Part shown: positions 10,184 to 35,118 of the stretch, piece after piece
Layout: the number at the start of each line of letters is the position of its first letter
How positions within the stretch are numbered: position 1 is the stretch's first letter
Assembly (NCBI GenBank): GCA_036511615.1
Contig: DATCBW010000116.1
Location: 1-53,200 of the forward strand
DNA from: Verrucomicrobiia bacterium
Lineage (GTDB): Bacteria; Verrucomicrobiota; Verrucomicrobiia; Limisphaerales; UBA11358
Direction: 5' to 3'
DNA: 53,200 bases
Translations under genes and position numbers: made by a program
Notes under the pieces: generated by a model
What the model was told of the DNA's origin: nothing
What the model saw: only the letters and a program-made list of their open reading frames with translations
The model's database searches: none

Positions 10184-10205
10184 ACTTTTGAGGACGAGCA
10201 GGATT

Positions 10206-11456
10206 TTAGCGAATCATCATCGCCTCCGGATTTTCCTGTTTCGCGCTGTAATTGACCACCCAGCGCAACATGCCGAGGCTGAAGTTGGAGTTGGACGCCG
10301 CGCCGGTAAAAACTTTGGCGAAATGGTTTCGATACCAAGGCGACATGAGCCGCACCCAGGGATATTTCATTTCCATCCGTTCGCCGACGACGACGGAATT
10401 GAACAGCCGTCCGTCGTAGAAATACTCCGCGATCTCATGCCAGCATTGCAAGTGATGCGTGTTTTCCTGCTCGTAACGCTTGAACGCGCTTTCCGAGCCT
10501 TTGCCAATGGCTTCGGCCAGCAGCACCGCACCCTCCATCCCGGTGAGCAGGCCGCTGGAAAACACCGGGTCCACAAATCCCGCCGTGTCGCCGACCAGCG
10601 CCCAGTTGCCGCCGAACATCCGTTCCGACACGAGCTGGTAGTTCGTGTATTCCAGCACCGGCGTCAGGCGTTTCGCCTCGCCCGCGACTTTCATCAGGAC
10701 GGAATCCTGTTTCAGCAAATTATCGAAGCGTTCCTCCTTCGTCGCGCCGAATTTCGGCAAATGTTCCGAGCCGATGACCATGCCGACGGAAACGCGGCCC
10801 GGCAACGGAATCCGCCAGCTCCAGCCGTGATCGAGCCGCGTTGTGTGAACGTGGCCTTCGTAATCGAGCGCCGTGCGGTCAACGTGCGCAAACAGCGCCG
10901 CGTCCTTGCGCCCGCCTTCGCGCGCAGAAATGCCGAGCAATTTCGGCAACAGCCGCACGCGGCCCGTCGCGTCCACAATCAAATCCGGCTGGCCAGAGAA
11001 GAAATTTTCCGTGGCGGCGAGCGATGCCTCGCTCAACCTGACGTTCTCCGTGCCGGGAATTTTTTCCACGTTCGCCGGGGCTTCGATTATTTTCGCGCCC
11101 GCCTTGCGCGCTGCGGCCAGAATCGTGTCGTCGAACTTGTCGCGCGGCACGTTGTAGGCGTAGGTCGGCAGCGGTCCGCGGATGTTGGCGAACGGAAAGG
11201 AAAAATTTACCGACTCGCTCAAATTGATCGTCGCGCCGGGCTTGAGGAGACTATAGCCGCGCACTTCGTCCTCCACGCCGAGCTGCCGCAAAATTGGGAT
11301 GATGGCCGGCACGAGCGATTCGCCGACAATGATCGGCGCGCGCTTGGGCAGATGAAAAATGGCGGTGCGGATTTTTTGCCGCGCGAGCAGCGTCGCGAGG
11401 GTGCCCGCCGCCGGTCCGCCGCCGAGGATGGCCACGGTTCTGATTTTGCCGTTCAT
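10206..11456 (-). CDS. flavin-dependent halogenase (paralog 1)
   Basis: 416 aa. Motifs: GxGxxG (ILGGGPAAG), PKRAPIIVGESLVP (lysine plus GES motif, as in carrier-protein/phenol-type halogenases) and WxWxIP (WSWRIP, 10806-10823 on the minus strand). Confidence 0.7.
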   Translation of the reverse strand: MNGKIRTVAILGGGPAAGTLATLLARQKIRTAIFHLPKRAPIIVGESLVPAIIPILRQLGVEDEVRGYSLLKPGATINLSESVNFSFPFANIRGPLPTYAYNVPRDKFDDTILAAARKAGAKIIEAPANVEKIPGTENVRLSEASLAATENFFSGQPDLIVDATGRVRLLPKLLGISAREGGRKDAALFAHVDRTALDYEGHVHTTRLDHGWSWRIPLPGRVSVGMVIGSEHLPKFGATKEERFDNLLKQDSVLMKVAGEAKRLTPVLEYTNYQLVSERMFGGNWALVGDTAGFVDPVFSSGLLTGMEGAVLLAEAIGKGSESAFKRYEQENTHHLQCWHEIAEYFYDGRLFNSVVVGERMEMKYPWVRLMSPWYRNHFAKVFTGAASNSNFSLGMLRWVVNYSAKQENPEAMMIR

Positions 11457-11612
11457 GTTGCGGAGGGAGCTTAATGGCCGGCGGCGATGAAAACAATTTC
11501 GGAAATTGCCGGAGCGCGAGTTGTCCCAACTCGCAGCGCTTCCGACCGGGCTGGCCGCTGCGGATTGGGAACAATCCGCGTTCCGGCAAAAAAATCGTCG
11601 CTTCGAGGTGGT

Positions 11613-11815: not shown

Positions 11816-13084
11816 ATGAACGCTGACCGGCCACTCGACGGCTGCGATTACTTGATGCTCGCCTTCGACCACGAGTTGCGGCGTCATGGCTATGCGGGCA
11901 ACTCCTGCCAGATCATCCTCGAACTGGCTTCCGCGATTTCACCCGACGCACTGCGCCGACGGCTCGACGCGCTGGCCGGGCAATGTCCGGTTCTGGGCGC
12001 GCGCGCCACGGGCGTCATCCGGCCCCGATGGAAAATTCCCGCCAAAGCCACAGCCCCCAAAGTCCGTGTTCACCGTGAAGATGCGGAACTTTTAACCCGT
12101 CTGATCAACGAGCCGTTGGACGTGGAGCGCGGCGAACTGGCACGCTTCGACCTCATCGAAGTTGACGGCGGCCGGATGCGCGTCATTTTTACCTGGGCGC
12201 ACGCCTTGATGGACGCACACAGCGCGGAACATTTCATCGCCGTCGCTGGCCGCAACGAATTGCCGCTGCCGGCGGCGGACTTTATTCCATTGAAAAAACC
12301 GCAGATGCCCTTGAAGGCGCGGCTGAAGGGCACCTGGAAAAATCTCCGTGCCTATCATGAATTCCGCAACGTCGCGCCGCGTTCGCCTGGACGGCGTCAT
12401 CCCGTCGCGCCGAAACAACAACTGTTCCGCGTGGAAAAGTTTTCCGCCGCCGAATCCGCGCAGGTTCGCGCCCACGCCACGAAGCTGGCCGGCGTGTTCG
12501 GCGAGGCGCAATATCACGCCGCCGTCGCCCTCATCGAACTGCAAAAGTTCCAGCAGCAACTCGGCTGCCCCAGCCCCAGTTTCGTTTTGCCCGTGCCGGT
12601 CGGAATGCGGCCCAAGGGCAACGTCGAACCGCTTTTCAGCAACCAGGTCACGTCGCTGCTGCTCCAGCTTCTGCCCGGCCAGTTGGAATCCGTCGCCACC
12701 GCCGTTGCCACTCTCAAAAGCCAGACCGCGCACGCGATGCGTGAGGGCATCGTGGAAGGCTGCGCGTTCTTCACGGATTTTTTGCGGGTGGTGCCGCGCC
12801 CGGCCTACATGGCGTTCATGCGGCATGGCTTGAAAGGAGAAATTTGCTCGTTGTTCTACGGCAACACCGCCGCCGTCAGCCCGCTCGTCACCACTTTCCA
12901 CGGCGCGGCCATCGAGGATTTCACCCACAACGCCGCCGTGCCGGAACTTCCAGGACTAGGCGTCATCTTCTACCAGTTTCGCGGCGAACTGCGCGTCACC
13001 ATCGCGCATTTGGCCGAGACGCTGGATGAAAGCGAGGCCGCGCAGTTCGCCTCGGCCTTGCGCGCCCGGCTGCTTAACCCATGA
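11816..13084 (+). CDS. HxxxD acyltransferase-like protein, paralog 2
   Basis: 422 aa, alignable end to end with 7536..8867. Both start ..DxLMxxFDxELRRHGxAGNxCQIILEL.. and both end ..ALRxRLLNP. The motif WAHALMDAHSAEHF has H at 12200-12202. Confidence 0.5.
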   Translation: MNADRPLDGCDYLMLAFDHELRRHGYAGNSCQIILELASAISPDALRRRLDALAGQCPVLGARATGVIRPRWKIPAKATAPKVRVHREDAELLTRLINEPLDVERGELARFDLIEVDGGRMRVIFTWAHALMDAHSAEHFIAVAGRNELPLPAADFIPLKKPQMPLKARLKGTWKNLRAYHEFRNVAPRSPGRRHPVAPKQQLFRVEKFSAAESAQVRAHATKLAGVFGEAQYHAAVALIELQKFQQQLGCPSPSFVLPVPVGMRPKGNVEPLFSNQVTSLLLQLLPGQLESVATAVATLKSQTAHAMREGIVEGCAFFTDFLRVVPRPAYMAFMRHGLKGEICSLFYGNTAAVSPLVTTFHGAAIEDFTHNAAVPELPGLGVIFYQFRGELRVTIAHLAETLDESEAAQFASALRARLLNP

Positions 13085-13155
13085 CGCCCGCGCGGCCTGG
13101 CGGAAAGCAAAGCGGCTGGCCTTGCGGCTGCATGATGGTTAAACTGCCGGCGCAC

Positions 13156-14376
13156 ATGGCAAAGCACAGTTTTGAACAGGCCTGGCCTGCGGCGTTTCAT
13201 TACGCAAAAAAATACTCGCCGTTTTACCGCGAAACATTTCGCGGTCTCAAGGGCGTGCTGCGACTGGAAGACCTTCCGACGATTGACAAAAAAGTCTTGT
13301 CAGAGCGCAATCTGGATTTCCTCTGTGTGCCGCGCCGGCAAATCGCCGAAATCGTCACGACCAGCGGCACCACCGGCAAGCCGCTGCTGTGGATGCTGAC
13401 CGAGACCGACGTGAAACGGCTGGCGGTGAACGAAAAAATTTCCTTTGAGTGCGCCGGCCTCACGCCGCGCGACACGGTGCTCGTCGCCGTTTCGCTCGAC
13501 CGCTGCTTCATCGCCGGCCTCGCTTATTGGCAAGGTTTGCGCGAACTCGGCTGCGCCGTTGTGCGTGTCGGTGCGTCGTCTTCGATGCTCGTTTTGGAAA
13601 TGATCGAGCGCATTCAGCCAACGGCCATCGTCGCCGTGCCGTCGTTCCTGCGCGTCATCGCGGAGAAAGCACGCGAGACAAAATTCAATTTGAAAAATTG
13701 TTCCGTCACAAGGGCGGTCTGTATCGGCGAACCGATTCGCGACAGTTCATTTGCCTTGAACGCCTCCGGGCGCGTGATTGAAAAGGCGTGGGGCGCAAAA
13801 GTGTTTTCCACTTACGGCGTCACCGAGCTTGCCAATTCGCTTTGCGAGTGTGACGCAGGCAGGGGCGGGCATCTGCACGACGAACAACTGCACCTGGAAA
13901 TTCTCGACGATGCCGGAAACATTTTGCCCGACGGCGAAGTCGGCGAGGCGGTGGCGACGACGTTCGGTGTCGAGGCAATGCCGCTGATCCGCTACCGCAC
14001 CGGCGATTGCGCGGCGATCTTTTCAGCGAAATGCCGTTGCGGACGACGGACGCCGCGGCTCGGCCCGATTGTCGGGCGCAAAAACCAGAAGTTGAAACTC
14101 AAGGGCACGTCGCTGTTCCCTTCGACACTACAGGCGGTTTTGGAACAAGCCGCCGGCGTGGAAAATTTCGTCATCATCGCGCGGAAGGAAAATGAGCTTT
14201 CCGATTCGGTCGAGGTGTTGATTCGCGGCAGCGCGAAGGCGGCGGCGTTGCGCGAGGCGATTCAGGCGCGGGCAAAAATCGCGCCGCAGATCCGCCATGG
14301 GTCGTCGTCGGAAATTGAAAAGCTGCAACTGCCGCCGGACGCGCGGAAACGGCGGACGTTTGTGGATTTGAGATGA
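13156..14376 (+). CDS. PaaK / coenzyme F390 synthetase-like adenylate-forming ligase
   Basis: Motifs TTSGTTGKP, YGVTE and RYRTGD are typical of phenylacetate-CoA-ligase-like enzymes. The start is uncertain. I prefer MAKHSF.. at 13156, and 13081 and 13132 remain possible. Confidence 0.7.
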   Translation: MAKHSFEQAWPAAFHYAKKYSPFYRETFRGLKGVLRLEDLPTIDKKVLSERNLDFLCVPRRQIAEIVTTSGTTGKPLLWMLTETDVKRLAVNEKISFECAGLTPRDTVLVAVSLDRCFIAGLAYWQGLRELGCAVVRVGASSSMLVLEMIERIQPTAIVAVPSFLRVIAEKARETKFNLKNCSVTRAVCIGEPIRDSSFALNASGRVIEKAWGAKVFSTYGVTELANSLCECDAGRGGHLHDEQLHLEILDDAGNILPDGEVGEAVATTFGVEAMPLIRYRTGDCAAIFSAKCRCGRRTPRLGPIVGRKNQKLKLKGTSLFPSTLQAVLEQAAGVENFVIIARKENELSDSVEVLIRGSAKAAALREAIQARAKIAPQIRHGSSSEIEKLQLPPDARKRRTFVDLR

Positions 14377-14402: not shown

Positions 14403-14546
14403 GGGAGCGCAGCCGCCCCGGCTGCGGTTCGGTGCGCCCTCGCGCCGAACATGAACGTGGTTACACCAATCAAACAAAATTCATCGCCGTCGCACAATGC
14501 CGACGACGAGGGCGTCGCCGGCTGCGCCCGAGGCGGGCGCGCTCCC
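14403..14546. repeat. about 144-bp palindromic intergenic element, same terminal signature as 8894-9039
   Basis: The left end is gggagcgc plus the hairpin gcagcc-gcccc-ggctgc (14403-14425). The right end is the hairpin gcgcccg-agg-cgggcgc plus gctccc (14524-14546), which is an inverted GGGAGCGC terminus. Confidence 0.7.
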
Positions 14547-14563
14547 TATTTTCAATTCCACGA

Positions 14564-15682
14564 ATGAAATTTTGCATCCTCATTCCGTGCTACAACCATC
14601 CGACGACGGTGGCTGCCGTCGTGCGCGACGCGCAGAAATTCTGTCCGGTCATCGTGGTGGACGACGGCTCGACGCTGCCGCTGCCGGAATTGTCCGACTG
14701 CGAAATCATCCGGCTCGCGCAAAATACCGGCAAAGGCGCGGCCTTGCGCGCGGGCTTTCAACGCGCGCTGGAACTCGGTTGCACTCACGCCATCACGATG
14801 GACGCGGACGGCCAGCATTTCGCCGAGGATTTGCCGAAGTTTCTCGAAACGGCCAAAGTGCAGCCCGAAAGTTTGATCGTCGGCGTCCGCGATCTGGCGG
14901 CGGCGGGTTGTCCGGGGCATCGCCAGCGGTCCAATGCCGTCTCCGCCTTTTGGTTTCGCGTCGAGACTGGCGTGCCATTGCGCGATACGCAGTGCGGTTT
15001 CCGCTGTTATCCGCTCGCGCTGGCCAAAAATCTAAAAACGAAATCCGGCCGCTACGCTTTTGAACTGGAATTCATGGTGCGCGCGTCGTGGATTGGCACG
15101 CCCATCGTCGCCGTGCCGGTGAAATGCACTTATGCCGATGGCATTCGCAATTCACATTTCCGTCCGGTCGTGGACCTGGCCCACATCACCACGATGAACA
15201 TCGGGCTGGTGCTGCAATCGTGGTTTGTGCCGCGCTCGCTGCGCACGGAATGGTCGCTCGGCATCAAAACCACGCGGCGGCACACGCTTCACGAAGTTTT
15301 TTCTGAAAACGCGCACGAGCCGGGAAAGCTGGCGCTGGCCGTCGGGCTGGGATTGTTTTTCGGCATCGTGCCGATCTGGGGCATCCAGATGTTGACGGTC
15401 GCCGTGGTGGCGCACTGGCTGCGCTTGAACAAAGTCATCGCGCTCATCGTCAGCAACATTTCGCTGGGGCCGGGCGCGGTCGTCATCACCGTTGCGGCGG
15501 TCGTGCTTGGCCACTGGATGTTCACCGGCGAACGGCTGCCGATTCCGCCGCCGGTTGATTTTTCCAAGACCCGTGAATACCTCGTGCAATGGCTGGTCGG
15601 CAGCCTGGTGCTGGCCGTCATCGTGGCCATTCTCGGAACCATCACCGCCTATTTCGGTGCGCGACTGCTGAGGCGAAAATGA
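14564..15682 (+). CDS. family 2 glycosyltransferase fused to a DUF2062-like membrane domain
   Basis: I prefer the ATG at 14564 (MKFCILIPCYNH..). The GT2 features are VVDDGS and MDADGQH. The C-terminal about 130 aa is polytopic (..LAVGLGLFFGIVPIWGIQ..). The track start at 14432 would read through the repeat element. Confidence 0.75.
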   Translation: MKFCILIPCYNHPTTVAAVVRDAQKFCPVIVVDDGSTLPLPELSDCEIIRLAQNTGKGAALRAGFQRALELGCTHAITMDADGQHFAEDLPKFLETAKVQPESLIVGVRDLAAAGCPGHRQRSNAVSAFWFRVETGVPLRDTQCGFRCYPLALAKNLKTKSGRYAFELEFMVRASWIGTPIVAVPVKCTYADGIRNSHFRPVVDLAHITTMNIGLVLQSWFVPRSLRTEWSLGIKTTRRHTLHEVFSENAHEPGKLALAVGLGLFFGIVPIWGIQMLTVAVVAHWLRLNKVIALIVSNISLGPGAVVITVAAVVLGHWMFTGERLPIPPPVDFSKTREYLVQWLVGSLVLAVIVAILGTITAYFGARLLRRK

Positions 15683-18600
15683 AATCCGACCTTTACCCAC
15701 GGCTTTACTTGTGGCTGGCGGCGCGGCGACGCGCGGTGCTGATCACGGCGTTGATGCTGGCGCTCGGCAGTATCGCCATCTCGTCGCGCATCGGGCTGGA
15801 GGAGGACATTCTCGGCATTTTGCCGAAGAACGATCAGCTCGTTGACGATTACAAATACACGCTCAAAAAATTCGGCCAGATTGACCGTGTCTATATTGAC
15901 GTGGGCGTGACGAACGCGAGTTCTGAAAATCTTGGCCGCGCGGCGGACGAATTCTACGACGCGCTGGCAACCAACGAACTTTTCGCGCACATCACTTACC
16001 GCATTGAACTCGGCAACCAGGCGCAGACCGTCGGCCTGCTCACCGGTTCGCTGCCCAATTTGTTCACCGAGGACGACGCGAAAGAACTCGCGCCGAAACT
16101 GGAAACAAATTCCGTCCGTGAGTATTTGACGGCGATGCGGCGCAAGCTCGCCGGGCCGGAGGGAATGGTTTTGAAGGACGTGGTCGCCGCCGACCCCATC
16201 GGGATGAGCGGACTGGTGCTGCCGAAAGTCCTGCCGTTGCAGACCGGTTTTGGCGGCGCGCACATCGAGGACGGACGATTGACGAGCAGCAACGGCGTTC
16301 ATGTCCTGATGGTCGCCGAACCGAAATTTCATTCGGCGGACACCAAACACGATGCCGTCATTGTCGGCGAAATGCTCCGCGCGGCGGACGAAGTGGAAAC
16401 GAATTTCCCCGGCACGCACGTCGCCATCACCGGCGGACTCCGCATGGCGCTCGACAATTCGACGCTGATCTGGCACGACTCGATCCGCTGCTTCGTCATC
16501 GCCTTCACCGCGATGTTCATTCTCTGTTTCACCGCGTATCGCCGGCGCTGGCTGGCCGTGGTGACGTTTTTGCCGTCGCTGTTCGGCACGCTCGTCGCGG
16601 GCGCGGTCGTGGCGCTCGTGGACCAGCACGTTTCCGCGATCGCCATCGGCCTGGCGAGCATGGCGCTCGGCATCACGGTGGACTACGGCATCTACGTCGT
16701 CTATCACCTCGACAACGCCGCGACCGACCGGAACTCCGCCGGCAAAATCGTTGCGCGGCTCGTGCTGCCGACAATCATCGGCGCGATGACGATCATTGCC
16801 GCATTTGTCGTGCTGTCGTTTTCTCCGATGACCGGCTACCAGCAACTGGGCATTTTCGGCGCGTTCGGCGTGCTGATGTCGGCGGCGTTCGCGCTGCTCG
16901 TCTTGCCGCTGATTGTTCCGCTGCCCAAGTCCAAGGAAATCCAGCCGCTGCGCTTCACAAGCTGGATGGACAATTTTCATGCGTGGCAAATTAAAAAACG
17001 CCCGCTGCTGCTGCTCGGCGTGGCGGTGCTGACGGTCGTCGCCATTTTCGGCGTGAAAAAACTCCGCTTCGAAGGCGACATCGCCAAGCTCAACGGCATC
17101 ACGGAAGCCACGCGCGCCGACGACAAATTGATCAGCGACACTTGGGGCGACGCGCTCGGCATGACGGTCATCGTCGCGCGCGGAAAATCAGCGGACGACG
17201 CGCTGGCTGAAAACGACCGCGCCGCCGCGCTGCTCGCGCAACAGACCAACGTGGCCGGAATTTATTCGCTCTCCGCCATCTGCCCGGCGCGCAGCACGCA
17301 GGAAGAAAACATCCGGCGCTGGGAAAATTTCTGGACGCCGGAACGAAGGGACAAATTACGCGTGACGATAGAGCAGGTCGGCGGCGAACTTGGTTTTCGC
17401 ACAAACGCCTTCGCACCGTTTTGGGCAACCATCGAAAAAAACCCGGAACTGCTGACGCTCGACCGTTTTCGCGGCACGCCGCTCGAACAGGCGCTGAACG
17501 AACGCGTCGCTGTCGGCACGAACGACGTCGCCATCAGCACGCTCGTCAAACTGAAGGATCGTTCGCTGGCCGGGAAATTGCGTGACGCACTGCCGGGACT
17601 GATTGTGATTGACCAGAAAAATTTTGCCGAGCACATCGCCGCGCTGGCAAAAAACAACATGGGATTTTTTGCGCTGTGGACGGCCGTTGTCGTCGGCGTG
17701 ATCGCCTATTTCGCGCTGGCTTCAATTGAAGTCGTCATCGCCACGTTGCTGCCGATTGGTTTTGGGCTTTTGTGGACGCTTGGTTTGATGGGCTTGTTCG
17801 GTCTGCCAATCAACGTGATGAACTGCGTTTTTGTCATCTTTGTCATCGGCATGGGCGAGGATTACAGCGTGTTTCTGGCGACGAGCAAACTGGACGTGTG
17901 GCGCGGGCATCCGCCGCGCATCGCGCCGACGAGCGCGTCGGTTTTGATTTCGGCGGGGACGACGATTTTCGGTTTCGCCGTGCTGGCGTTCGCCAAACAT
18001 CCGGTTTTGTTTTCAATGGGCACGACGGTTTTGCTCGGCATGGTCAGTGCGTTCGCGGCAACGCTCGTCATCACGCCCGCGTGCATGGATTTCCTGCTGT
18101 GGCGCAAACCGCCGACCGGCGCGCCGCGCTGGTGGCATCTGCTGGGCAGCGTCTGGTGTGGACTTTATTTGCTGGTGAGCCAGTCTTTCGTGTTCGGGCC
18201 GCTGCGGCTGGCATTCAAAATCTTTGCTCCCGCCACCGCCGACCGCCGGCTGCGGCGGGCGTCACAACTGGCCATGAGCGGACTGGTCAAGACGTTTCCG
18301 CTGGGCAAAATCGAGTATCAAAATTTTTCGGCTGAAACGCTGGCGCGTCCGGCCATCATCATCAGCAATCACCAGTCCGCGCCGGACGTGCTGATCGCGT
18401 TCATCATTTCCAGCGAACTGGCCATGACGGTGAAACGCCGCGTCTATGATGCCCCCTTTCTCGGTGTCGCCTGCAAATGCCTCAAGCACGTCGTCGTGGA
18501 CGCCAACGAACCGGAAACCACGTTGCAGGAATGTCGCCAACGATTGGACGCGGGACTGTCGCTCCATTTCTTTGTGGAAGGCACGCGCTCGACTGACGGT

Positions 18601-19515
18601 TTCGTGCAACGCTTCCGCCGCGGCGCGTTCGAACTGGCGGTGGAATTGCAGCGCGACATTCTGCCGGTCGTCCTCTGCGACACCAACACCGCCATGCCGC
18701 GTGACGCCTGGTGGTTTGAGGCGGGCCACGCCACCGTCCGCGCGCTGCCGCGAATCACGCCGCAAAATTTCGATTATTCGCTCGGCGCCACCGCGCTGAT
18801 GCGCCACTGCGAAAAGATCGTCCGCGACTCGCACCAGCGGCAGCTCGACGAACTTAACACGCCGCGCACGTTGCGGCGCAAGGTGGAACGGCTTTACCGC
18901 TATCAAGGACCCTATGCCGAACAGCTTGCGCACTGGAAATTGAAGTTCGATCCGGTTTTCCATCCGCTCGACAAATTTGTGCCGCGCAGTGGATTCATCC
19001 TCGACCTCGGCTGCGGCTTTGGATTTGCCACGCACTGGCTCGCGCAAGGCACCGACCAGCGGACGTTTCTCGGCGTGGATTACGACGAAAATAAAATCCG
19101 CACCGCCCGGCAGACCGCGCAGGACCATCCACGCATCGAATTCCGATACGGCGACATTCTTGAAATGGAATATCCGCCGTGCGACGCAATTTTGCTCCTC
19201 GACGTGTTGCATTACTGGACGCCGGGAAAACAGCAGTTGATTCTGGACAAAGCGCGCCGCGCGTTGCGTCCCGGCGGAAAATTGATTTTGCGCGATGCCG
19301 CAAAAGCCGAAAGCGGCGCGCACCAGCACGTTCACCGCTGGGAAAAATTCGCGACGACGTTCGGCCTGAACCAGACGCGCGAAGGGCTGCATTTCCGGAC
19401 GCTGAACGAACTGGTCGACGCACTGAAACACGCCGGGTTCACGGACTGGCAGGTCATTCGCAATGCCGGACGCGGCTCCAACGTGATGTTGGTCGCCACG
19501 TTTGCGGCGGTTTGA
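15679..19515 (+). CDS. tri-domain fusion: MMPL/RND-like exporter, LPLAT (PlsC-type) acyltransferase and class I SAM methyltransferase
   Basis: The ATG at 15679 overlaps the upstream stop (ATGA), giving 1278 aa. Up to about 18120 there are two 5-6 TM bundles with large loops, exporter-like. It is followed by NHQSAPD (HX4D, 18367-18387) and FVEGTRS. The final part carries LDLGCGFG (from about 19000), ..LLLDVLHY.. and ..PGGKLILRD. Confidence 0.8.
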   Translation: MKSDLYPRLYLWLAARRRAVLITALMLALGSIAISSRIGLEEDILGILPKNDQLVDDYKYTLKKFGQIDRVYIDVGVTNASSENLGRAADEFYDALATNELFAHITYRIELGNQAQTVGLLTGSLPNLFTEDDAKELAPKLETNSVREYLTAMRRKLAGPEGMVLKDVVAADPIGMSGLVLPKVLPLQTGFGGAHIEDGRLTSSNGVHVLMVAEPKFHSADTKHDAVIVGEMLRAADEVETNFPGTHVAITGGLRMALDNSTLIWHDSIRCFVIAFTAMFILCFTAYRRRWLAVVTFLPSLFGTLVAGAVVALVDQHVSAIAIGLASMALGITVDYGIYVVYHLDNAATDRNSAGKIVARLVLPTIIGAMTIIAAFVVLSFSPMTGYQQLGIFGAFGVLMSAAFALLVLPLIVPLPKSKEIQPLRFTSWMDNFHAWQIKKRPLLLLGVAVLTVVAIFGVKKLRFEGDIAKLNGITEATRADDKLISDTWGDALGMTVIVARGKSADDALAENDRAAALLAQQTNVAGIYSLSAICPARSTQEENIRRWENFWTPERRDKLRVTIEQVGGELGFRTNAFAPFWATIEKNPELLTLDRFRGTPLEQALNERVAVGTNDVAISTLVKLKDRSLAGKLRDALPGLIVIDQKNFAEHIAALAKNNMGFFALWTAVVVGVIAYFALASIEVVIATLLPIGFGLLWTLGLMGLFGLPINVMNCVFVIFVIGMGEDYSVFLATSKLDVWRGHPPRIAPTSASVLISAGTTIFGFAVLAFAKHPVLFSMGTTVLLGMVSAFAATLVITPACMDFLLWRKPPTGAPRWWHLLGSVWCGLYLLVSQSFVFGPLRLAFKIFAPATADRRLRRASQLAMSGLVKTFPLGKIEYQNFSAETLARPAIIISNHQSAPDVLIAFIISSELAMTVKRRVYDAPFLGVACKCLKHVVVDANEPETTLQECRQRLDAGLSLHFFVEGTRSTDGFVQRFRRGAFELAVELQRDILPVVLCDTNTAMPRDAWWFEAGHATVRALPRITPQNFDYSLGATALMRHCEKIVRDSHQRQLDELNTPRTLRRKVERLYRYQGPYAEQLAHWKLKFDPVFHPLDKFVPRSGFILDLGCGFGFATHWLAQGTDQRTFLGVDYDENKIRTARQTAQDHPRIEFRYGDILEMEYPPCDAILLLDVLHYWTPGKQQLILDKARRALRPGGKLILRDAAKAESGAHQHVHRWEKFATTFGLNQTREGLHFRTLNELVDALKHAGFTDWQVIRNAGRGSNVMLVATFAAV

Positions 19516-19558
19516 AATTGTTTTCCAAAAATCCGCGCGCTAACTTCTCATCACAAAA

Positions 19559-20806: not shown

Positions 20807-20867
20807 AAATAGGATGGCGGCAGCAAACCGCCTGTGGGAAAATTTTCAGGCGGCATCATCAAATGAC

Positions 20868-20896: not shown

Positions 20897-20917
20897 AATT
20901 TTGTCATTAAAATACGC

Positions 20918-21915: not shown

Positions 21916-22617
21916 TCACCCGCGCTGCGGCACGGGATTCAACTGCGCGGCCGGTTGCCTGGTGCCAGCCTCTAAAATTTTCTGGCGCACAAATCCGGTG
22001 AATTCATCGCGCGCCAGGTGCAGATAATTTTCCGGCGGAATCGGGTCGCCAAAATGAACCTCGATTTTCCGCAGCCCGCCCACTGGATGAAACCGCCCCG
22101 CTTTCGTGGAAACCAACTGCATATTTTCGATGAAGACCGGCACGATGGGCGCGTGTGATTCCTGCGCGACGTAAAAAATTCCCGGCTGACATTCCGCCAC
22201 GTCCATGCCGTTGCCGCGCGTGCCTTCGGGAAAAACGATGAGATGAAATTTGTTGATCTGGCGCGCGTAGGCCTGCAGTTCGCGGATGCGGCCCGGATTC
22301 AACCGGCCGCGTTCCAGCAGAAACCCGATCGGCCCGCTCAACGCGCGTTTGATCCACGACGTGCGCCAGATATTTTTGTCGCCCAGCACAAGAATCGGAT
22401 AACACCCCGCGCGCCAGCACAGGCCGCCGATCAAAATCGTGTCGAGCAGGCTGACATGGTTGCAGGCGAATAAATACCGCTGGCGCGGATCCAGCTTGTC
22501 CGTGCCGTGCGTCCGGCGCAGATACGTGGCGGCAAAACCCGCGTAGGCCGACAGGCCCATCAAAGCCTGCGTCAGCTTCAACTTCCGCGAAACCTGGTTT
22601 CCTTCCGGTTGTTCCAT
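21916..22617 (-). CDS. 1-acyl-sn-glycerol-3-phosphate acyltransferase-like (PlsC/LPLAT family)
   Basis: It has the HX4D motif CNHVSLLDT and the FPEGTRG motif. Confidence 0.8.
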   Translation of the reverse strand: MEQPEGNQVSRKLKLTQALMGLSAYAGFAATYLRRTHGTDKLDPRQRYLFACNHVSLLDTILIGGLCWRAGCYPILVLGDKNIWRTSWIKRALSGPIGFLLERGRLNPGRIRELQAYARQINKFHLIVFPEGTRGNGMDVAECQPGIFYVAQESHAPIVPVFIENMQLVSTKAGRFHPVGGLRKIEVHFGDPIPPENYLHLARDEFTGFVRQKILEAGTRQPAAQLNPVPQRG

Positions 22618-22637
22618 GATTCAAAATGGCCGCAATG

Positions 22638-24308
22638 CTAGTTCGCGCCCTTGGCCTGGCGCAACAAATCTTCCAGTTCCTGTTTTTCCTTCAAAAATGC
22701 CGGCTGTTCCGACAACGCCTTTTCAAAAGCCTTTGCCGCCTCTTCGCGTTTCCCCAACGCGAGCAACGCACGTCCCTGCAAAAATGAATTCTGATAAAAC
22801 CCCGGATTCAGCGCTTCTGCTTTCTTGGCAAAAACCAGCCCGGCCTGCGCGTCCTGGTTTTTCAACGCGCGCAGGCCATCGGCCAGGAATTGCTGCGCCT
22901 GCCGCGTGCGCTCATATTCGCCATCCGCGAGCACCGGATCAGCGGGTATGGTCAAGGCAGGCAGCTCCTGCGAGAAATCATTGACGTCGAACGCGACGAA
23001 TTTGCCGAGCTGGTTCGGCGGCGACGCAGCCCAGAAAATTCCCGCCGTCAAATCCATCACCACCGCGTGCGTGGCGATGAACGCGTCCAGCGAACCGCGA
23101 TGGCCGTCGCCCGCAAAAGCGCCGCCCGGCAGATCGCGGTCGCGCAAAATGGCCGCCGCGTTCGTGGCGTTGATGGTGCCGTCATCCTGCTTGAGCAGTT
23201 CGAGCATCCGTTCTTCCCGCGAGACGGACGTGGCCTCGGACATGTAATTCGTGTTGCGAACGTCGTCCTTGAGTCCCGGCGTCTCAAAATGGTTCGGGCA
23301 GACAATCGTGTCGCCTTCCGCCTCGCGCACATTGGTCGTCGTGGGCGTTTTTTCCACGACAACAAATTTCCCATCGGCGCGGCTGCCGATGAGCCAGATC
23401 GTGGAAACAAAAACTTTCGCGTCGCGCAGGATTTTCAGCGACTCGTCCAGGTTGTGCGCGTTCTGCAAAATCTCCCGCGCGACGATGGCCACCGGCGTCG
23501 CGATGTTGTTGGGCAGTTTGGACGGCGCGCCGTTGATGGTCACGGAAACGCCCGCGCGATTCATGCCCGAAACCACGCCGGCCATGCCCGCCCACGACAG
23601 CGAAATGAACGGAATCCCGCCGTCGGGTTCAAACATTTCCACGACGCGGTTGGTGCTGAAAACGTCGGCCGCTTCCCAGTCGAAATTCCGGCCGGTGATC
23701 AAGTGGCCGTTCCCCGTCGCGCCGCCCCACGCGCCGAACGCCGTGCAGCCCGCGCGGGCGTTGATGAACGGATTGTCAATCATCATGTAGGAAACGTCGT
23801 GCGCGGCGTGGTAGTTCAGCAGCCGGTTGTAAAAATTTCCCTCCTCGGGATGAATGTCCGGGCAGCCGAGCGTCGTCGCGTAAATTTCCAGCCGGTAGGC
23901 TTCGGGGATGTAGTCGCTCAAATGCCGGTTGCGCCACATGACGTAATTTTTCAATAGCTCCATCACCCAATGTTTCGGGACATAACCTTGGATCATCTTC
24001 ATGAACTCGTTTTCCAGCGTGTGCATTTTGTCCTGCATCAGCACGCCGTCCGCGTAACCGATTTCCAGCGGCGAACCTTTCAGATAAACAACGGTCAAAC
24101 CTTCGCGTTCACCCGTCCACGACTTGCCGAGCCACGTTTTTCCATCGCGCTTTTCCGGTTTCAATTTCAAAACCGACGTGTCCGCCGGCAGCGGCGGCGG
24201 TTTGGCGATGCTGTCATGCATCATCAAAACCGCCGCGAGCCAGCCCAGCAGCGCGAGCAAAATCGCGCCGAGCAGAATCCGCTTGAGCCATTTCTTGATT
24301 CGCTTCAC
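22638..24308 (-). CDS. peptidase C45 / acyl-CoA:6-aminopenicillanic-acid acyltransferase-like Ntn-hydrolase with N-terminal TM anchor and C-terminal TPR region
   Basis: A GTG at 24308 overlaps the upstream stop (GTGA). The TM segment is ILLGAILLALLGWLAAVLM. The candidate nucleophile context is ..NARAGCTAFGAWG.. The C-terminal helical repeats are ..ALKNQDAQAGLVFAKKAEALNPGFYQNSFLQGRALLALGKREEAAKAFEKAL.. Confidence 0.6.
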   Translation of the reverse strand: MKRIKKWLKRILLGAILLALLGWLAAVLMMHDSIAKPPPLPADTSVLKLKPEKRDGKTWLGKSWTGEREGLTVVYLKGSPLEIGYADGVLMQDKMHTLENEFMKMIQGYVPKHWVMELLKNYVMWRNRHLSDYIPEAYRLEIYATTLGCPDIHPEEGNFYNRLLNYHAAHDVSYMMIDNPFINARAGCTAFGAWGGATGNGHLITGRNFDWEAADVFSTNRVVEMFEPDGGIPFISLSWAGMAGVVSGMNRAGVSVTINGAPSKLPNNIATPVAIVAREILQNAHNLDESLKILRDAKVFVSTIWLIGSRADGKFVVVEKTPTTTNVREAEGDTIVCPNHFETPGLKDDVRNTNYMSEATSVSREERMLELLKQDDGTINATNAAAILRDRDLPGGAFAGDGHRGSLDAFIATHAVVMDLTAGIFWAASPPNQLGKFVAFDVNDFSQELPALTIPADPVLADGEYERTRQAQQFLADGLRALKNQDAQAGLVFAKKAEALNPGFYQNSFLQGRALLALGKREEAAKAFEKALSEQPAFLKEKQELEDLLRQAKGAN

Positions 24309-24670
24309 GACAGTTTCAACAAAGCTTCGCCCGCCGGTTGTCCGCCGCAAATGAAATTTGCCCGTGCGGAAACCACGCCATCGGCTTCGGCCAGTTTCAA
24401 ATTCAGTTTCAGGATTTCGCCGGGCAGAACTGGGCGTTGAAATTTCGCCTTGGCAATTTCCCGGACGGCCAGCGGACGGTTCTGCATCCATTCCGCCGCC
24501 ATGCGGGTAATTTCCAGTTGAAAGATGCCCGGCAGAATCGGGCGGTTCGGAAAATGGCCGGCAAACACCGGATCATCCGCGCTGAAATTGAATTCAAACC
24601 GGTTCGTTCCGTCGGGCTGCGGCGACGGCCCGGATTTTCGCGCGGCGGCAATGGAATCTCTCATCGTCAT
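24305..24670 (-). CDS. hotdog-fold 3-hydroxyacyl-ACP dehydratase (FabZ/ApeP-like)
   Basis: 121 aa with the motif FAGHFPNRPILPGIFQLE. Confidence 0.75.
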   Translation of the reverse strand: MTMRDSIAAARKSGPSPQPDGTNRFEFNFSADDPVFAGHFPNRPILPGIFQLEITRMAAEWMQNRPLAVREIAKAKFQRPVLPGEILKLNLKLAEADGVVSARANFICGGQPAGEALLKLS

Positions 24671-25179
24671 GATTTGGGCGCCTTGGTTTCGTCGAACAAA
24701 TCCGCCGGTTGCGCGCCAGGTTTGATTTCCAGAATCCGCAAATCCAGCTTGTAGCCGCCGCGATCAATCACAAAATGGTTCGGGTCCGGCATCGTGACCG
24801 GGCAGTCCAGCTTCGGCGTGCCGCCAAAAACGCACTCCACGTCGGCGGCCACGAGGCGGCGGATGTATCTCGCGGGAAACATCCGGCTGGATTGCATCAC
24901 AAAAACTTTCCCGTCCGGCTTAATCAGCAAATCAGCAATCACCTGGCCGAAATTTTCCGTGATGACAAGCCGTTTGCCGCCGGTTTCGCTCATGGCGAGA
25001 TAGCCGTTGAGCGCGAACTGCATTCCGCGTGCGCTGAACAGGGCGCGCTGCGTGATGAAGGCGTTCGCTGGGAAAAAACCTTTCGGAGGCGGTAAATATT
25101 GCGTTGGCGGCAGCGGCGGGCTGGCACAGCCAGCGAGCAAACAAATCACCAACGATAGGATAAAATAATTACGGCGCAT
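24667..25179 (-). CDS. lipoprotein, DUF3261-like
   Basis: It has a signal peptide with lipobox LLAGC. Its size and its position next to the LolA-like gene match the DUF3261 protein of APE-type clusters. The family call rests on context and recollection. Confidence 0.5.
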   Translation of the reverse strand: MRRNYFILSLVICLLAGCASPPLPPTQYLPPPKGFFPANAFITQRALFSARGMQFALNGYLAMSETGGKRLVITENFGQVIADLLIKPDGKVFVMQSSRMFPARYIRRLVAADVECVFGGTPKLDCPVTMPDPNHFVIDRGGYKLDLRILEIKPGAQPADLFDETKAPKS

Positions 25180-25861
25180 GATTCACGGCGGCCCGCACGG
25201 CGGCAATGGGCAGCGGTTTGGTTTGATCGAACGCGCCGGGCGGAAACGTCACGTTGCGCTTTTCGTTGTGAAAGATGATACGCGTCAGGTCGCCGTTCGG
25301 CTCATTCAGCACGACTTCGCGCGTCGCCGAAAAATCCGGTTCCAGGTGGATTTCAAACGACGACATCATTGAGCGCACGTTTTTGTCCTTCGGGGTCATC
25401 GTCACCACCGTTTCGCTGTTGGTCGCGAGCGACACGGAGAATTCGTTGGTCAGCGTGTCGAGCTGGCCCTGGTTCATCGCCGACATCTGCTGCATCACGC
25501 GCTGCAAAAGCTGGGGAAAACCGAGCTTCAACTTTTCCCACCTGCCGTCGTTGAACTCGAACTGCGCGACGGATTTCTGGTCGCCGAGCAAAATCGTCTG
25601 ATACGGCGCGGTCGTTTCCCAGCGGATTTTGTCGGGCCGTTCAATCAGCATCACGCCTTCGCTTTTCAGTGGCTCGGAAAATAATTTCAGCTCCCGCTCC
25701 TGCGTGAATTCCAGATACACGGTGCCGACCGAGGACATTTTATGCTGCAAAGCGTCCAGAATCGGGCGCGGATCGGCAACGGTTTGCAGCGTCGGTTCCG
25801 CCGAAACAGAAAATGCCGCGAACGCCGACGCGAGCAAAAAAATATGCGTGAGTTTCTTCAT
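25169..25861 (-). CDS. LolA-like outer-membrane lipoprotein carrier family protein
   Basis: It has a signal peptide (MKKLTHIFLLASAFAAFSVSA). Its about 200-aa mature part has the LolA-like pattern ..VYLEFTQEREL..SEGVMLIERPDKIRWE.. Confidence 0.6.
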   Translation of the reverse strand: MKKLTHIFLLASAFAAFSVSAEPTLQTVADPRPILDALQHKMSSVGTVYLEFTQERELKLFSEPLKSEGVMLIERPDKIRWETTAPYQTILLGDQKSVAQFEFNDGRWEKLKLGFPQLLQRVMQQMSAMNQGQLDTLTNEFSVSLATNSETVVTMTPKDKNVRSMMSSFEIHLEPDFSATREVVLNEPNGDLTRIIFHNEKRNVTFPPGAFDQTKPLPIAAVRAAVNHAP

Positions 25862-26610
25862 TTCAACAGTTCGTCCAGTCGCACAATTTCATAACCCAGC
25901 CCGCGCAGCGTGTCCAACAGCGATTTCACCGTCGCCAGCAGTTTTTCCGCCGGAATGTTTCCGTCATGCAGCAAAATAATCGCGCCCGGCTGGAGTCCGC
26001 GCGTGATTCGGGCGACAATTTTTTCCGGCCCGGCAATGACGGTATCCAGACTGCGAATCGTCCAGCCGATGACCTGCAAGTTCAGATTTCGCGCGGCGCG
26101 AAAGGTGCCCGGATTGGACAAGCCGACGGGCGGCCGGAAAAATTTTGGCGTGACGCCGGCAGCCTTTTCAATGACATCCTGCGTTTGCACCAATTCAGCT
26201 TGCAGCCGCGCGGCGGAATAGAAATTTGTAAAATTGCTGTGCGCGTAAGAATGATTTTCGAGCAGATGACCGTCGCGCACGATTTGCGCCGCGAGTTCGG
26301 GATTGGCCGTGACCTTTTTGCCGATGCAAAAAAATGTGGCGGATATTTTTTCTTTACGCAGAAGGTCGAGCAGTTGCAATGTCGAGCGCGGGTCGGGGCC
26401 GTCGTCGAATGTCAGCGCAACCTGCTTTTGGGAACTTGTGCCGCGACAGATAAAATTTCCAAACAGCCGCAGTTGCGGAACCGCCACGCCCAGGCCCATC
26501 ACGATCAACAGCGCCACTATCACCGCGTTTAGCAGGATGAAATTGTGCAGCGCGAGCGCCGCTGCTCCAAAAATCACCGCCAAAATTGCGACGACATGAA
26601 AACGGGTCAT
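25858..26610 (-). CDS. polysaccharide deacetylase (NodB homology domain) with N-terminal TM segments
   Basis: Motifs TFDDGPDP and ..NHSYAH.. are present. The ATG at 26610 overlaps the upstream stop (ATGA). The track start at 26673 would overlap the KS gene by 67 nt. Confidence 0.8.
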   Translation of the reverse strand: MTRFHVVAILAVIFGAAALALHNFILLNAVIVALLIVMGLGVAVPQLRLFGNFICRGTSSQKQVALTFDDGPDPRSTLQLLDLLRKEKISATFFCIGKKVTANPELAAQIVRDGHLLENHSYAHSNFTNFYSAARLQAELVQTQDVIEKAAGVTPKFFRPPVGLSNPGTFRAARNLNLQVIGWTIRSLDTVIAGPEKIVARITRGLQPGAIILLHDGNIPAEKLLATVKSLLDTLRGLGYEIVRLDELLK

Positions 26611-28796: not shown

Positions 28797-28799
28797 GAT

Positions 28800-29057
28800 T
28801 TATTGCGGACGTTTGGCCGCGATGAAGTCGGCCAGGGTTCTGACGGAGCGGAATGCCGGGCGGCCTTCCTCAATGTCCTTGATCACGATGCCGTAGTCTT
28901 TTTCGAGCAGCACGACGAGTTCGAGCGCGTCAATGGAATCGAGTCCCAGCCCGGTGCCGAACAGCGGCGCGTCGTCGTCAATCTGCTCCGGCGTGATGTC
29001 CTGCAGCTTGAGCGACTCGATGATTTTTGATTTTAGTTCGTGTGTTGAGATTTGCAT
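28800..29057 (-). CDS. acyl carrier protein
   Basis: It has the motif LGLDSIDALELV. I prefer the ATG at 29057 (MQISTHEL..), since the track start at 29099 would overlap the upstream gene. Confidence 0.8.
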   Translation of the reverse strand: MQISTHELKSKIIESLKLQDITPEQIDDDAPLFGTGLGLDSIDALELVVLLEKDYGIVIKDIEEGRPAFRSVRTLADFIAAKRPQ

Positions 29058-29062
29058 GGTGA

Positions 29063-35106: not shown

Positions 35107-35118
35107 GATTTTGGTTTA

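Follow-up and report, generated by a model that had tools for sequence, protein, structure and literature searches.

A verrucomicrobial FlxU-type protein joining an RND exporter, a PlsC-type acyltransferase and a class I methyltransferase in one polypeptide

The window analyzed here, a 53,200-nt stretch of DNA from a member of the Verrucomicrobiia, encodes a 1278-aa protein that is a verrucomicrobial ortholog of FlxU, in which an RND exporter, a PlsC-type acyltransferase (AT) and a SAM-dependent methyltransferase (MT) follow each other in one chain. An earlier note on the same DNA had contrasted the fusion with the separate proteins of APE-type clusters; the fusion is not peculiar to the window but is the FlxU architecture, which is known and widespread in Bacteroidota and Verrucomicrobiota and is not a new invention. 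Schöner et al. 2014 already described FlxU of flexirubin clusters as such a fusion (PMC3992019; supplement, Tables S4/S5), and the same work annotates Cpin_1873 (the FlxU of Chitinophaga pinensis) and Fjoh_1078 (Flavobacterium johnsoniae). Fjoh_1078, with a published coverage of 91%, may retain the MT domain (PMC3992019).

The fusion ORF and its three domains

The features assigned to the ORF, with the evidence used, are the following:

15679..19515 (+), stop codon included: whole 1278-aa ORF, FlxU-type RND-AT-MT fusion (ORF listing, domain scans, homolog alignment, contigs)
15679..18096 (+): RND/MMPL exporter module, aa 1-806 (Pfam MMPL, NCBIfam HpnN/HAE3, hydropathy, K/R distribution, AF2, Foldseek)
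16681..16686 (+): Asp335-Tyr336 in TM4, putative proton-relay pair (of 30 divergent fusion proteins, 25 have D and 27 have Y)
17860..17865 (+): Asp728-Tyr729 in TM10, putative proton-relay pair (D in 30/30, Y in 22/30 and F in 7/30 divergent fusion proteins)
18127..18294 (+): pair of long helices of amphipathic/hydrophobic character, at aa 817-849 and 854-872 (AF2 secondary structure, Foldseek against 5KYM, flanking K/R)
18295..18786 (+): PlsC/LPLAT-fold acyltransferase core, aa 873-1036 (PF01553, 5KYM, motif conservation, ApeD match)
18787..18978 (+): conserved helical connector and MT N-terminal cap, aa 1037-1100, RLYRYQG...WKLKxDP (alignment, AF2 secondary structure, AT-less variants)
18979..19512 (+): class I SAM-dependent methyltransferase, aa 1101-1278 (Pfam Methyltransf_25/11/12/31/2, Foldseek, motif conservation)

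The frame is open from 15589 to 19515 (+), and a start at the ATG at 15679, which shares the sequence ATGA with the stop codon of the preceding GT2/DUF2062 gene, gives 1278 aa and agrees with the N-terminus of all homologs (MKxDLY...). Logan contigs from four independent metagenome runs on different peat and soil samples cover 15500-19700 and contain 0 indels in the ORF, and a single contig from run X1 (16630-19700, 0 gaps) bridges both domain junctions. When contigs were compared with the fusion frame, 32 of the 40 strain variants listed fell at codon position 3. Junction indels were likewise absent when 117 full-length homologs with 62-82% identity were aligned, with even conservation through both junctions, and the catalytic motifs are conserved in all three domains. 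The fusion ORF is thus one translated unit under purifying selection, and the junctions are intact, as had been read from the letters. That a missed stop or frameshift in assembly or annotation had joined two or three genes has a practically negligible probability and is effectively refuted by the contigs and the variant positions, as well as by the occurrence of over 115 full-length homologs in assemblies made independently, the equal architecture in isolate genomes and the recurrence of the domain order in divergent relatives (see below).

Among the contigs of runs X3 and X4, one apparent joint (17166->18779) was seen; it consists of 21 nt of a 46x contig, a depth mismatched to the local 5-10x.

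Pfam and NCBIfam scans found all three of the domains originally proposed. In the exporter part, Pfam MMPL was matched in two stretches (E 2e-16), together with HpnN-like and HAE3 RND models of NCBIfam. Hydropathy analysis gave 12 TM helices. It also gave a large loop after each of TM1 (aa ~41-262) and TM7 (aa ~463-660), and these loops are predicted to be periplasmic domains in an N-in/C-in topology. TM12 ends at about aa 806 (nt ~18096), close to the boundary of about 18120 that the earlier note had drawn. The D-Y pairs of TM4 and TM10 presumably correspond to those in TM4 and TM10 of MmpL3. With 12 TM helices, two large loops and charged relay residues in TM4 and TM10, the exporter part belongs to the MMPL (PF03176) lipid exporters of the RND superfamily, and it shares 21.5% identity with ApeM (E 2e-13). 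The structure was modeled in two overlapping parts, AT-MT (pLDDT 85, pTM 0.83) and RND+AT (AF2, pLDDT 81), and the best Foldseek matches of the latter were HpnN, MmpL4/5 and MmpL3. The exporter part has the HpnN fold yet is not an HpnN ortholog, as the equivalog models TIGR03480 and NF052374 score 111 bits against a cut-off of 752 and 56 against 1100, respectively.

Following TM12, the helices at aa 817-849 and 854-872 are the counterpart of the two helices that anchor PlsC to the membrane at its N-terminus, and an apparent 13th hydrophobic segment (aa 821-839), with K/R on both flanks, falls inside this anchor. The core of the AT matches Pfam Acyltransferase (PF01553, aa 889-999, E 6.5e-19) and the AGP_acyltrn domain of NCBIfam. 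Its HX4D motif spans H898-D903 (nt 18370-18387), within NHQSAPD beginning with N897 at nt 18367, and FVEGTRS (FxEGTRS) occupies aa 965-971 (nt 18571-18591), both where they had been placed before. Three of the motif residues (H898, E967, R970) do not vary, and D903 is found in 29 of 30 sequences. The alpha/beta fold with its two-helix interfacial anchor, HX4D and (F/Y)xEGTR place the domain in the PlsC/LPLAT family. ApeD matches the fused AT (29% identity, E 3.5e-15) and no other protein of the window; the free-standing PlsC-type AT at 21916 was considered as the ApeD equivalent and rejected, having no ApeD match. We conclude that the fused AT is a complete, ApeD-like acyltransferase of the PlsC-fold lysophospholipid type with its HX4D/EGTR set intact. 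The database name 1-acyl-sn-glycerol-3-phosphate acyltransferase is not established for this domain by sequence comparison, where TIGR00530 scores 62 against 103 bits and PRK15018 28 against 501.

The inter-domain linkers measure 92-98 aa and 73-83 aa and are nearly constant despite divergence to ~23% identity, the second being the spacing from the end of the AT to the GxGxG motif in 30 sequences. The C-terminal domain is matched by Pfam Methyltransf_25/11/12/31 (aa 1107-1223) and Methyltransf_2 (aa 1085-1254). It has the Rossmann-like fold, the GxGxG motif I (in LDLGCGFG, nt 19000-19023, as first noted) and the acidic residue after beta-2 of class I methyltransferases; G1111, G1113, G1115 and D1134 are invariant, and a D1175-x-x-H1178-Y1179 motif is conserved. 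Its Foldseek matches are small-molecule methyltransferases (CysG, CmoA, PhzM, SgvM, DnrK, SibL and CalO1). ApeB orthology was rejected, as ApeB (352 aa) matches only with E 0.001 and 24% identity over 131 aa. By comparison, FlxJ, encoded by a separate gene in Chitinophaga, matches ApeB over its full length (44% identity, E 1e-117), and Chitinophaga carries both FlxJ and the fused MT domain. As judged from its sequence, the fused MT is a subfamily of its own, distinct from ApeB/FlxJ and with an intact SAM site. Since FlxJ is the genuine ApeB ortholog and coexists with the fused MT, the latter presumably has another job, at least in Chitinophaga.

Distribution of the architecture and the gene surroundings

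More than 115 close verrucomicrobial homologs show the identical RND-AT-MT architecture. A search of other genomes, which the earlier note had proposed, found at least 598 confirmed relatives; nearly all of the best 80 of these align across aa ~5-1272, cultured Chitinophaga and Mucilaginibacter included. In isolate genomes of these genera and others, the relatives are single ORFs with 25-28% identity across the same range. Among 166 divergent relatives examined, 112 showed the domain order RND-AT-MT. In a sister verrucomicrobial lineage, RND-MT proteins occur from which the AT domain is cleanly deleted and which retain the connector from about aa 1067 onward. The C. rupis ortholog is a 1282-aa ORF with three matching domains, located between an FlxT-like GT2 and FlxV/FlxW/FlxY and adjoining LolA2_flexi and LolB2_flexi; all of these pass their NCBIfam cut-offs.

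The genes around the fusion in the 53-kb window form a flx/ape-like cluster:

13081..14376 (+): FlxY-like aryl/acyl-CoA ligase (NCBIfam FlxY_rubin, E 5e-125; 418 bits where the cut-off is 520)
14564..15682 (+): FlxT/ApeJ-N-like GT2 + DUF2062 glycosyltransferase (profile matches, conserved adjacency; stop codon overlapping the fusion's start codon)
21916..32195 (-): remainder of the flx/ape-like cluster (profile and sequence matches, conserved neighbourhood), with the genes below
21916 (-): PlsC-type AT, free-standing
22638 (-): C45/FlxW-like protein
24305 (-): ApeI-like DH
24667 (-): FlxR-position protein (putative LolB2-like role, from position)
25169 (-): LolA2 (97 bits, below the NCBIfam cut-off of 125)
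25858 (-): polysaccharide deacetylase
26607 (-): KS-CLF fusion
28800 (-): ACP
29063 (-): CLF-like
29640 (-): KS
30784 (-): DH
31203 (-): LpxL-type AT

The likely start of the GT2/DUF2062 gene is M45 of the ORF listed at 14432..15682, and its adjacency to the fusion gene is kept in both Verrucomicrobiota and Bacteroidota. The window also contains a desaturase gene, two halogenase-like genes and two genes for HxxxD condensation-like proteins; the ORF at 10188..11474 (+) was discarded as a gene, being an antisense shadow of a minus-strand halogenase-like gene. A FlxU-type protein is one polypeptide of about 1270-1300 aa with the order RND exporter, PlsC-type AT and class I MT, encoded directly 3' of the GT2/DUF2062 gene (FlxT) and clustered with genes for LolA2, a deacetylase, C45, an FlxY-like ligase, KS, CLF, ACP and DH, and the window shows both this protein and this context.

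Among the scanned ORFs of the 53-kb window, genes for KR, TAL/XanB2, thioesterase and DarA/B were not found, which leaves the product of the cluster uncertain. Ammonia-lyase, SDR and KAS III gave no match among the scanned ORFs either, and a tblastn search of the window with ApeQ found none. Judged by FlxA, FlxB and darA/darB, the cluster within the window is not a flexirubin cluster in the sense of C. pinensis and F. johnsoniae. By analogy with darAB in C. pinensis, these genes could lie beyond the 53 kb.

Proposed role of the fusion and alternative explanations

The whole is probably best explained by an inner-membrane FlxU ortholog of flexirubin/aryl-polyene-class pigment-lipid clusters in which late tailoring is hard-wired to export. 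The AT and MT domains would lie on the cytoplasmic face, directly beneath the C-terminal half of the transporter; this placement agrees with the positive-inside pattern, in which the loops predicted to be cytoplasmic are rich in K/R, and with the PlsC-like two-helix anchor. The AT would move an ACP-bound polyene or other conjugated acyl chain, made by the KS/CLF/DH/ACP proteins of the cluster, to a membrane-embedded hydroxyl acceptor, which may be a lyso-glycerophospholipid-type anchor if the proposed function of ApeD is a guide. The MT would methylate some position on the same lipid or its aryl head. The finished amphiphile would then enter the RND module next to these domains and, with the proton-motive force as driving force, be passed to the periplasmic LolA2-like carrier and via the LolB2/FlxR-position protein to the outer membrane. 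Roles for ApeD, ApeM and ApeL have been proposed (bioRxiv 10.1101/2020.12.19.423268; PMC8253772).

The fusion, the fixed linker lengths and the cluster context suggest a coupling between RND export and the acylation of a lipid in the cytoplasmic leaflet, and the fusion may be seen as a covalent version of the coupled synthesis/export model for mycobacterial MmpL systems. The earlier note had regarded the fusion as Rosetta-stone evidence that all three activities act on the same molecule. This is reasonable for AT and exporter, which are conserved neighbours in Proteobacteria (PMC3949708); for all three together it is what we infer. Because the sister RND-MT proteins do without the AT, its coupling to the exporter is not obligatory. 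The existence of these variants also underlies a wider, speculative picture, which we consider rather improbable: a covalent assembly line for an outer-membrane lipid, where this RND clade depends on the MT and not on the AT as its obligatory partner, methylation of the lipid is the commitment or recognition step that licenses exporter loading, and the product in Verrucomicrobiota is a polyene lipid, halogenated, desaturated and not yet described, that differs from both flexirubin and the APE lipid of Xenorhabdus.

The fusion might alternatively consist of canonical ApeM, ApeD and ApeB, with the MT acting on the polyene chromophore at its aryl ring or phenol. The exporter is ApeM-like and the AT ApeD-like, and as the 53-kb window holds no ApeB/FlxJ homolog, the fused MT is the sole MT of the cluster. 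F. johnsoniae has Fjoh_1078, yet a FlxJ homolog is not listed for it (PMC3992019), and PhzM, DnrK, SibL and CalO1, which are among the Foldseek matches of the MT, are O-/C-methyltransferases of aromatic small molecules. We nevertheless consider this unlikely in view of the short ApeB match and of the ApeB-type FlxJ that coexists with the fused MT in Chitinophaga. The flexirubin of C. pinensis gains a single methionine-derived methyl group (PMC3992019), which FlxJ could supply; this would leave the fused MT without a known product.

It is doubtful, too, that the AT forms the final pigment ester, joining polyene-ACP and a phenolic or alkyl-resorcinol-type acceptor directly before export, instead of acylating a lysophospholipid. 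FlxU orthologs do typify flexirubin clusters, and flexirubin is an ester of a polyene acid with a dialkylresorcinol (PMC3992019); FlxW has been guessed to form this bond, and PlsC-fold enzymes acylate hydroxyls of membrane-embedded acceptors. However, ApeD, the best characterised relative, has been assigned sn-2 acylation of lyso-phosphatidylglycerol (bioRxiv 10.1101/2020.12.19.423268), darA/darB are absent from the window, and the cluster has GT2, deacetylase and LpxL-type AT genes as are usual for APE lipids with a glycolipid anchor, while the C45/FlxW-like and the two HxxxD proteins offer alternative esterifying enzymes. Lipid repair or remodelling unrelated to pigment, where the RND part flips or retrieves lysolipids, the AT re-acylates them as in LplT-Aas and the MT modifies housekeeping lipids, is suggested by a weak match of the AT to PRK08633 (acyl-[ACP]--phospholipid O-acyltransferase; the AT at 442-551 of a 1147-position profile), a family that is itself a transporter-acyltransferase-ligase fusion. 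This is very improbable, since Aas-type models all score far below their cut-offs and the fusion gene is embedded in, and co-conserved with, a polyene PKS/LolA2/GT2 cluster in two phyla.

With late tailoring wired to export as the preferred reading, the FlxU family provides a natural, conserved experiment in two phyla, where the exporter for a pigment lipid of the outer membrane, an RND protein, has become tied to an AT and an MT. The passage of hydrophobic polyketide lipids from synthesis at the cytoplasmic face to export, which is a question for mycobacterial MmpL systems too, can be approached through this family, and orthologs are available in the genetically manipulable Flavobacterium and Chitinophaga. 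In genome scanning, the RND-AT-MT architecture serves as a marker of flx/ape-class clusters and not as a novelty.

Comparison with known systems

The C. rupis FlxU ortholog and the window protein agree in domain order and length and differ in phylum, with low identity between them. Flx clusters and the window have in common the GT2/DUF2062 gene upstream, LolA2, deacetylase, C45, FlxY, KS/CLF and an LpxL-type AT. Compared with the flx cluster of C. pinensis, the window lacks FlxA (TAL), FlxB (KR), FlxJ (ApeB-type MT), thioesterase and DarA/B within 53 kb, and has in addition the desaturase, the two halogenase-like genes, the two HxxxD proteins and an extra PlsC-type AT. According to work cited in PMC3992019, a spontaneous pigment-less mutant of F. 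johnsoniae was complemented by a plasmid with Fjoh_1078-1089.

With the APE clusters of E. coli CFT073 and Xenorhabdus doucetiae, the window shares a common logic of type II PKS-like KS/CLF/DH/ACP, GT2, LolA-like carrier and exporter. In E. coli CFT073, ApeM, ApeD and ApeB are separate polypeptides of 772, 273 and 352 aa (PMC8253772 Table 1), as the earlier note had stated; its identification of the fused MT with the methyltransferase of such clusters did not hold, ApeB sharing nothing with the fused MT past the class I fold. Conversely, GT2 and LpxL-type AT are fused in E. coli ApeJ and encoded by separate genes in the window.

The AT resembles PlsC of Thermotoga maritima (PDB 5KYM), which Foldseek matched over the whole domain including the two-helix anchor (243 columns of the 241-residue target, TM-score 0.75) and which matches in sequence with E 1.7e-12; unlike the fused AT, PlsC is a free-standing monotopic enzyme. 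HpnN and MmpL3/4/5/7 share with the exporter part the 12-TM RND fold with two periplasmic domains, and have lipid substrates. MmpL7 binds the PDIM synthase PpsE, a precedent for coupled synthesis and export (PMC1238737), and the entry titles of some of the MmpL4/5 structures matched indicate AcpM bound at the cytoplasmic side. In the HpnN/MmpL systems enzymes or ACP join non-covalently, whereas in the window protein the enzymes are within the exporter chain. A precedent for the combination of a membrane transporter, a PlsC-family AT and a third enzymatic domain is found in the LplT-Aas type (NCBIfam PRK08633). Its transporter is of the MFS and not the RND type, its third domain is adenylating and not a methyltransferase, and it acts in lysophospholipid recycling.

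Reading frame and domain structure of the fusion protein

The fusion gene occupies a single unbroken frame (15589..19515, +) in the ORF listing of the window, and translation from its ATG at 15679, which shares nucleotides with the stop codon of the preceding gene, gives a protein of 1278 aa whose start agrees with the N-terminus of all homologs. Pfam searches identified MMPL in two stretches, Acyltransferase PF01553 at aa 889-999 (E 6.5e-19) and several class I methyltransferase models at aa 1085-1258; NCBIfam returned HpnN/HAE3-type RND models and an AGP_acyltrn domain, all far under the equivalog cut-offs. Hydropathy analysis predicts two large loops among 12 TM helices, and aa 821-839 form a further, 13th hydrophobic stretch. 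The earlier note, made from the sequence alone, had read an exporter, an acyltransferase (AT) and a methyltransferase (MT) in this one ORF. The domain scans and hydropathy bear this out, and the motif coordinates it gave were exact.

The ORF is real. Positions 15500-19700 are covered, with zero indels, by Logan contigs from four runs, which represent different samples of peat and soil; one of these contigs crosses both domain junctions, where the earlier note had likewise seen no frameshift. Strain variants fall at third codon positions of the fusion frame in 32 of the 40 cases listed. A homologous-protein search identified more than 115 full-length homologs that carry the fusion's set of Pfam domains (1264-1323 aa, 62-82% identity), and conservation in their alignment is even across both junctions. 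Those named by NCBI are MAG proteins from Verrucomicrobiae or Limisphaerales, called either '1-acyl-sn-glycerol-3-phosphate acyltransferase' or 'MMPL family transporter'. When read contigs were compared with the window, an apparent joint from 17166 to 18779, skipping 1612 bases, was seen in two Logan runs (X3 and X4). The joint is supported by just 21 bases, from a contig at 46x where local depth is 5-10x, and most likely reflects a word shared by chance with another genome.

An AlphaFold2 model of aa 806-1278 (57 sequences, pLDDT 85, pTM 0.83) begins with two long helices, followed by the alpha/beta core of the AT, a helical connector and a Rossmann-fold MT. In Foldseek searches, the AT part aligned to the entire PlsC of T. 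maritima (5KYM, TMt 0.75, 243 columns), including the two-helix interfacial anchor, and the MT part matched the small-molecule methyltransferases CysG, CmoA, MM_2633, PhzM, SgvM, SibL and DnrK. A second model, of aa 1-1060 (pLDDT 81, pTM 0.65), has a 12-TM RND fold; the nearest structures are those of HpnN, of MmpL4/5, several of which contain bound AcpM, and of MmpL3. PDB sequence searches agree with these fold matches (PlsC 1.7e-12, HpnN 1.1e-8).

In a set of 30 divergent fusion proteins (23-36% identity), H898, E967, R970, G1111, G1113, G1115, D1134 and D728 are invariant, and D903, D335/Y336 and the D1175/H1178/Y1179 motif nearly so; position 729 is Y in 22 and F in seven. TM12 and His898 are always 92-98 residues apart, and the AT and GxGxG 73-83. 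The conserved residues and near-constant spacings suggest that all three modules are catalytically competent and held in fixed geometry. The N-terminus and the predicted cytoplasmic loops are K/R-rich, K/R residues lie on both flanks of aa 821-839, and this segment is homologous to the monotopic two-helix motif of PlsC. From the even TM count, the K/R pattern, the PlsC-like segment and the cytoplasmic location of SAM and acyl-ACP, we infer that the AT and MT domains face the cytoplasm, as the earlier note expected.

Distribution of the architecture and prior description

The AT-MT part alone was used as a phmmer query against 1.84 billion cluster representatives, giving 318 matches at E<=1e-30. 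The best 150 of these and 16 members of their clusters were classified by domain HMMs: 112 of the 166 sequences were RND-AT-MT, 18 were RND-MT, and the remainder were mostly short AT-MT pieces, which may be fragments. Among GTDB species genomes, a pattern scan identified at least 598 confirmed relatives, of which the best 80 comprise Verrucomicrobiota (56-73% identity) and many Bacteroidota, including Chitinophaga (among them C. rupis DSM 21039 and C. costaii), Mucilaginibacter, Ferruginibacter, Terrimonas, Puia, Ohtaekwangia and Bacteroidales. The Bacteroidota proteins in this set share 25-28% identity with the fusion and align over residues ~5-1272, contig-truncated loci excepted. In C. rupis the three domains again make up one ORF, of 1282 aa, and its neighbours include LolA2_flexi, LolB2_flexi and FlxY above NCBIfam cut-offs. 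The RND-AT-MT architecture, which the earlier note had proposed to seek in other genomes, is common in two phyla.

The fusion is an already known feature, since the supplement of Schöner et al. 2014 (Tables S4, S5; PMC3992019) describes this architecture for FlxU, the fused protein of flexirubin clusters. Fjoh_1078 is listed there in Table S5 with a 'predicted exporter- and acyltransferase domain' (37% identity, 91% coverage), and according to work cited in that paper, complementation of a pigment-less F. johnsoniae mutant was obtained with a plasmid bearing Fjoh_1078-1089. The window protein adds a Verrucomicrobial representative to this FlxU-type family. Four Verrucomicrobiia proteins of 1024-1056 aa (P0144, P0172, P0199 and P0218), close relatives with 56% identity in the RND and MT parts, lack exactly the AT domain (window aa ~800-1066), the MT helical cap being joined almost directly to TM12. 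P0144 belongs to a closely related Verrucomicrobial lineage.

The surrounding gene cluster

The cluster extends from about 5890 to 32195 in the window.

Genes of the cluster (coordinates or position, strand, feature)
5890, +, FadD-like ligase
7536-8867, +, HxxxD condensation-like protein
9051, +, FAD oxidoreductase
10206-11456, -, second halogenase-like gene (Trp_halogenase-like flavoprotein), paralog of 19559-20806
11816-13084, +, HxxxD paralog
13081-14376, +, FlxY-like ligase
14432/14564-15682, +, GT2+DUF2062
15679, +, RND-AT-MT fusion
19559-20806, +, halogenase-like flavoprotein
20879, +, DesA-like desaturase
21916, -, PlsC-type AT
22638, -, C45/FlxW-like protein
24305, -, ApeI-like dehydratase
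24667, -, small protein in FlxR/LolB2 position
25169, -, LolA2
25858, -, polysaccharide deacetylase
26607-28796, -, KS-CLF fusion, 729 aa
28800, -, ACP
29063, -, CLF-like protein
29640, -, KS
30784, -, dehydratase
31203-32195, -, LpxL-type AT

An ORF at 10188-11474 (+) was rejected as a gene, being an arginine-rich antisense shadow of the minus-strand halogenase-like gene. In a synteny set of ten Verrucomicrobial and six Bacteroidota loci, the GT2-fusion gene pair is kept throughout. The KS and CLF halves form one ORF in the window and the Verrucomicrobial relatives and are encoded separately in Bacteroidota clusters (about 399 and about 354 aa). Between the fusion and the convergent AT gene, the halogenase-like and DesA-like fatty-acid desaturase genes (19559-21898, +) are probably a lineage-specific insertion that would alter the product, since most relatives have nothing at this position. 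The proteins at 7536-8867 and 11816-13084 are ~430-aa paralogs with a conserved HxxxD (WTHLLMDA and WAHALMDA), each adjoining an adenylating enzyme (5890 and 13081), and Verrucomicrobial relatives have a homolog of either the first or the second. Neither Pfam nor NCBIfam gave them a significant match (the best was Pfam Condensation, E 0.015), and they look like PapA5/WS-DGAT-type condensation-fold acyltransferases. In the whole window (1-53200), no KR, ammonia-lyase/XanB2, thioesterase, ApeB/FlxJ or DarA/DarB gene was found. Unless housekeeping FabG or genes elsewhere are used, the cluster genes seen here do not suffice for a polyene.

Both the FlxY-like ligase and the MT of the fusion (18979-19512) show weak NCBIfam matches to the DVU_1553 ligase and DVU_1556 methyltransferase families, respectively, named after neighbouring Desulfovibrio genes, which hints that this pairing may recur in another system. 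Outside the cluster, the intervals 34336-36795 and 37182-40216 (-) hold three tandem genes for proteins with type IV pilin-like N-terminal methylation motifs, with DUF1559 in two of the three, and then genes for two proteins of the sigma-70 family that have long extensions at the C-terminus (DUF3738 in one). Pilin-like genes of this sort are typical of the Planctomycetes-Verrucomicrobia group and fit the taxonomic assignment.

Comparison with aryl-polyene proteins and proposed enzyme-exporter coupling

The aryl-polyene (APE) cluster proteins of E. coli CFT073 were compared with the window proteins by BLASTP. ApeM matched the RND part of the fusion (21.5% identity, E 2e-13) and ApeD the fused AT domain only (29% identity, E 3.5e-15), with no match between ApeD and the free-standing AT at 21916; the fused AT is ApeD-like. 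ApeJ of E. coli (L088 21213-22889) is one GT2 and LpxL-type AT fusion, whereas the counterparts of its halves in the window are separate genes (14432-15682, +, and 31203-32195, -) 16 kb apart. Different neighbours are fused in different lineages of this cluster family.

The observation of the earlier note is confirmed and its interpretation is partly supported. Its likening of the fused MT to the APE methyltransferase did not hold: ApeB matched the fused MT marginally (E 0.001), and a separate gene in the FlxJ position of a Chitinophaga locus (L044:592-1659) aligns full-length with ApeB at 44% identity (E 1e-117). The fused MT therefore belongs to a subfamily distinct from the ApeB-type enzyme, with which it coexists in Chitinophaga; in the Verrucomicrobial cluster it is the sole MT.

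The role proposed for ApeD is to transfer a conjugated acyl chain from ACP to the sn-2 position of a lyso-phosphatidylglycerol (bioRxiv 10.1101/2020.12.19.423268). In the fusion, the AT would build a membrane-anchored pigment lipid in the inner leaflet, the MT would add a methyl group, and the RND module would then extract the product and pass it to the LolA2-like carrier and to the LolB2-position protein. Two caveats apply, namely the P0144 lineage without exactly the AT domain, and the single methionine-derived methyl group in the C. pinensis flexirubin (PMC3992019). The fusion is valuable mainly as a model in which enzyme-exporter coupling is tractable, and the coupling that we propose mirrors the idea of coupled synthesis and export for mycobacterial MmpL7-PpsE (PMC1238737).
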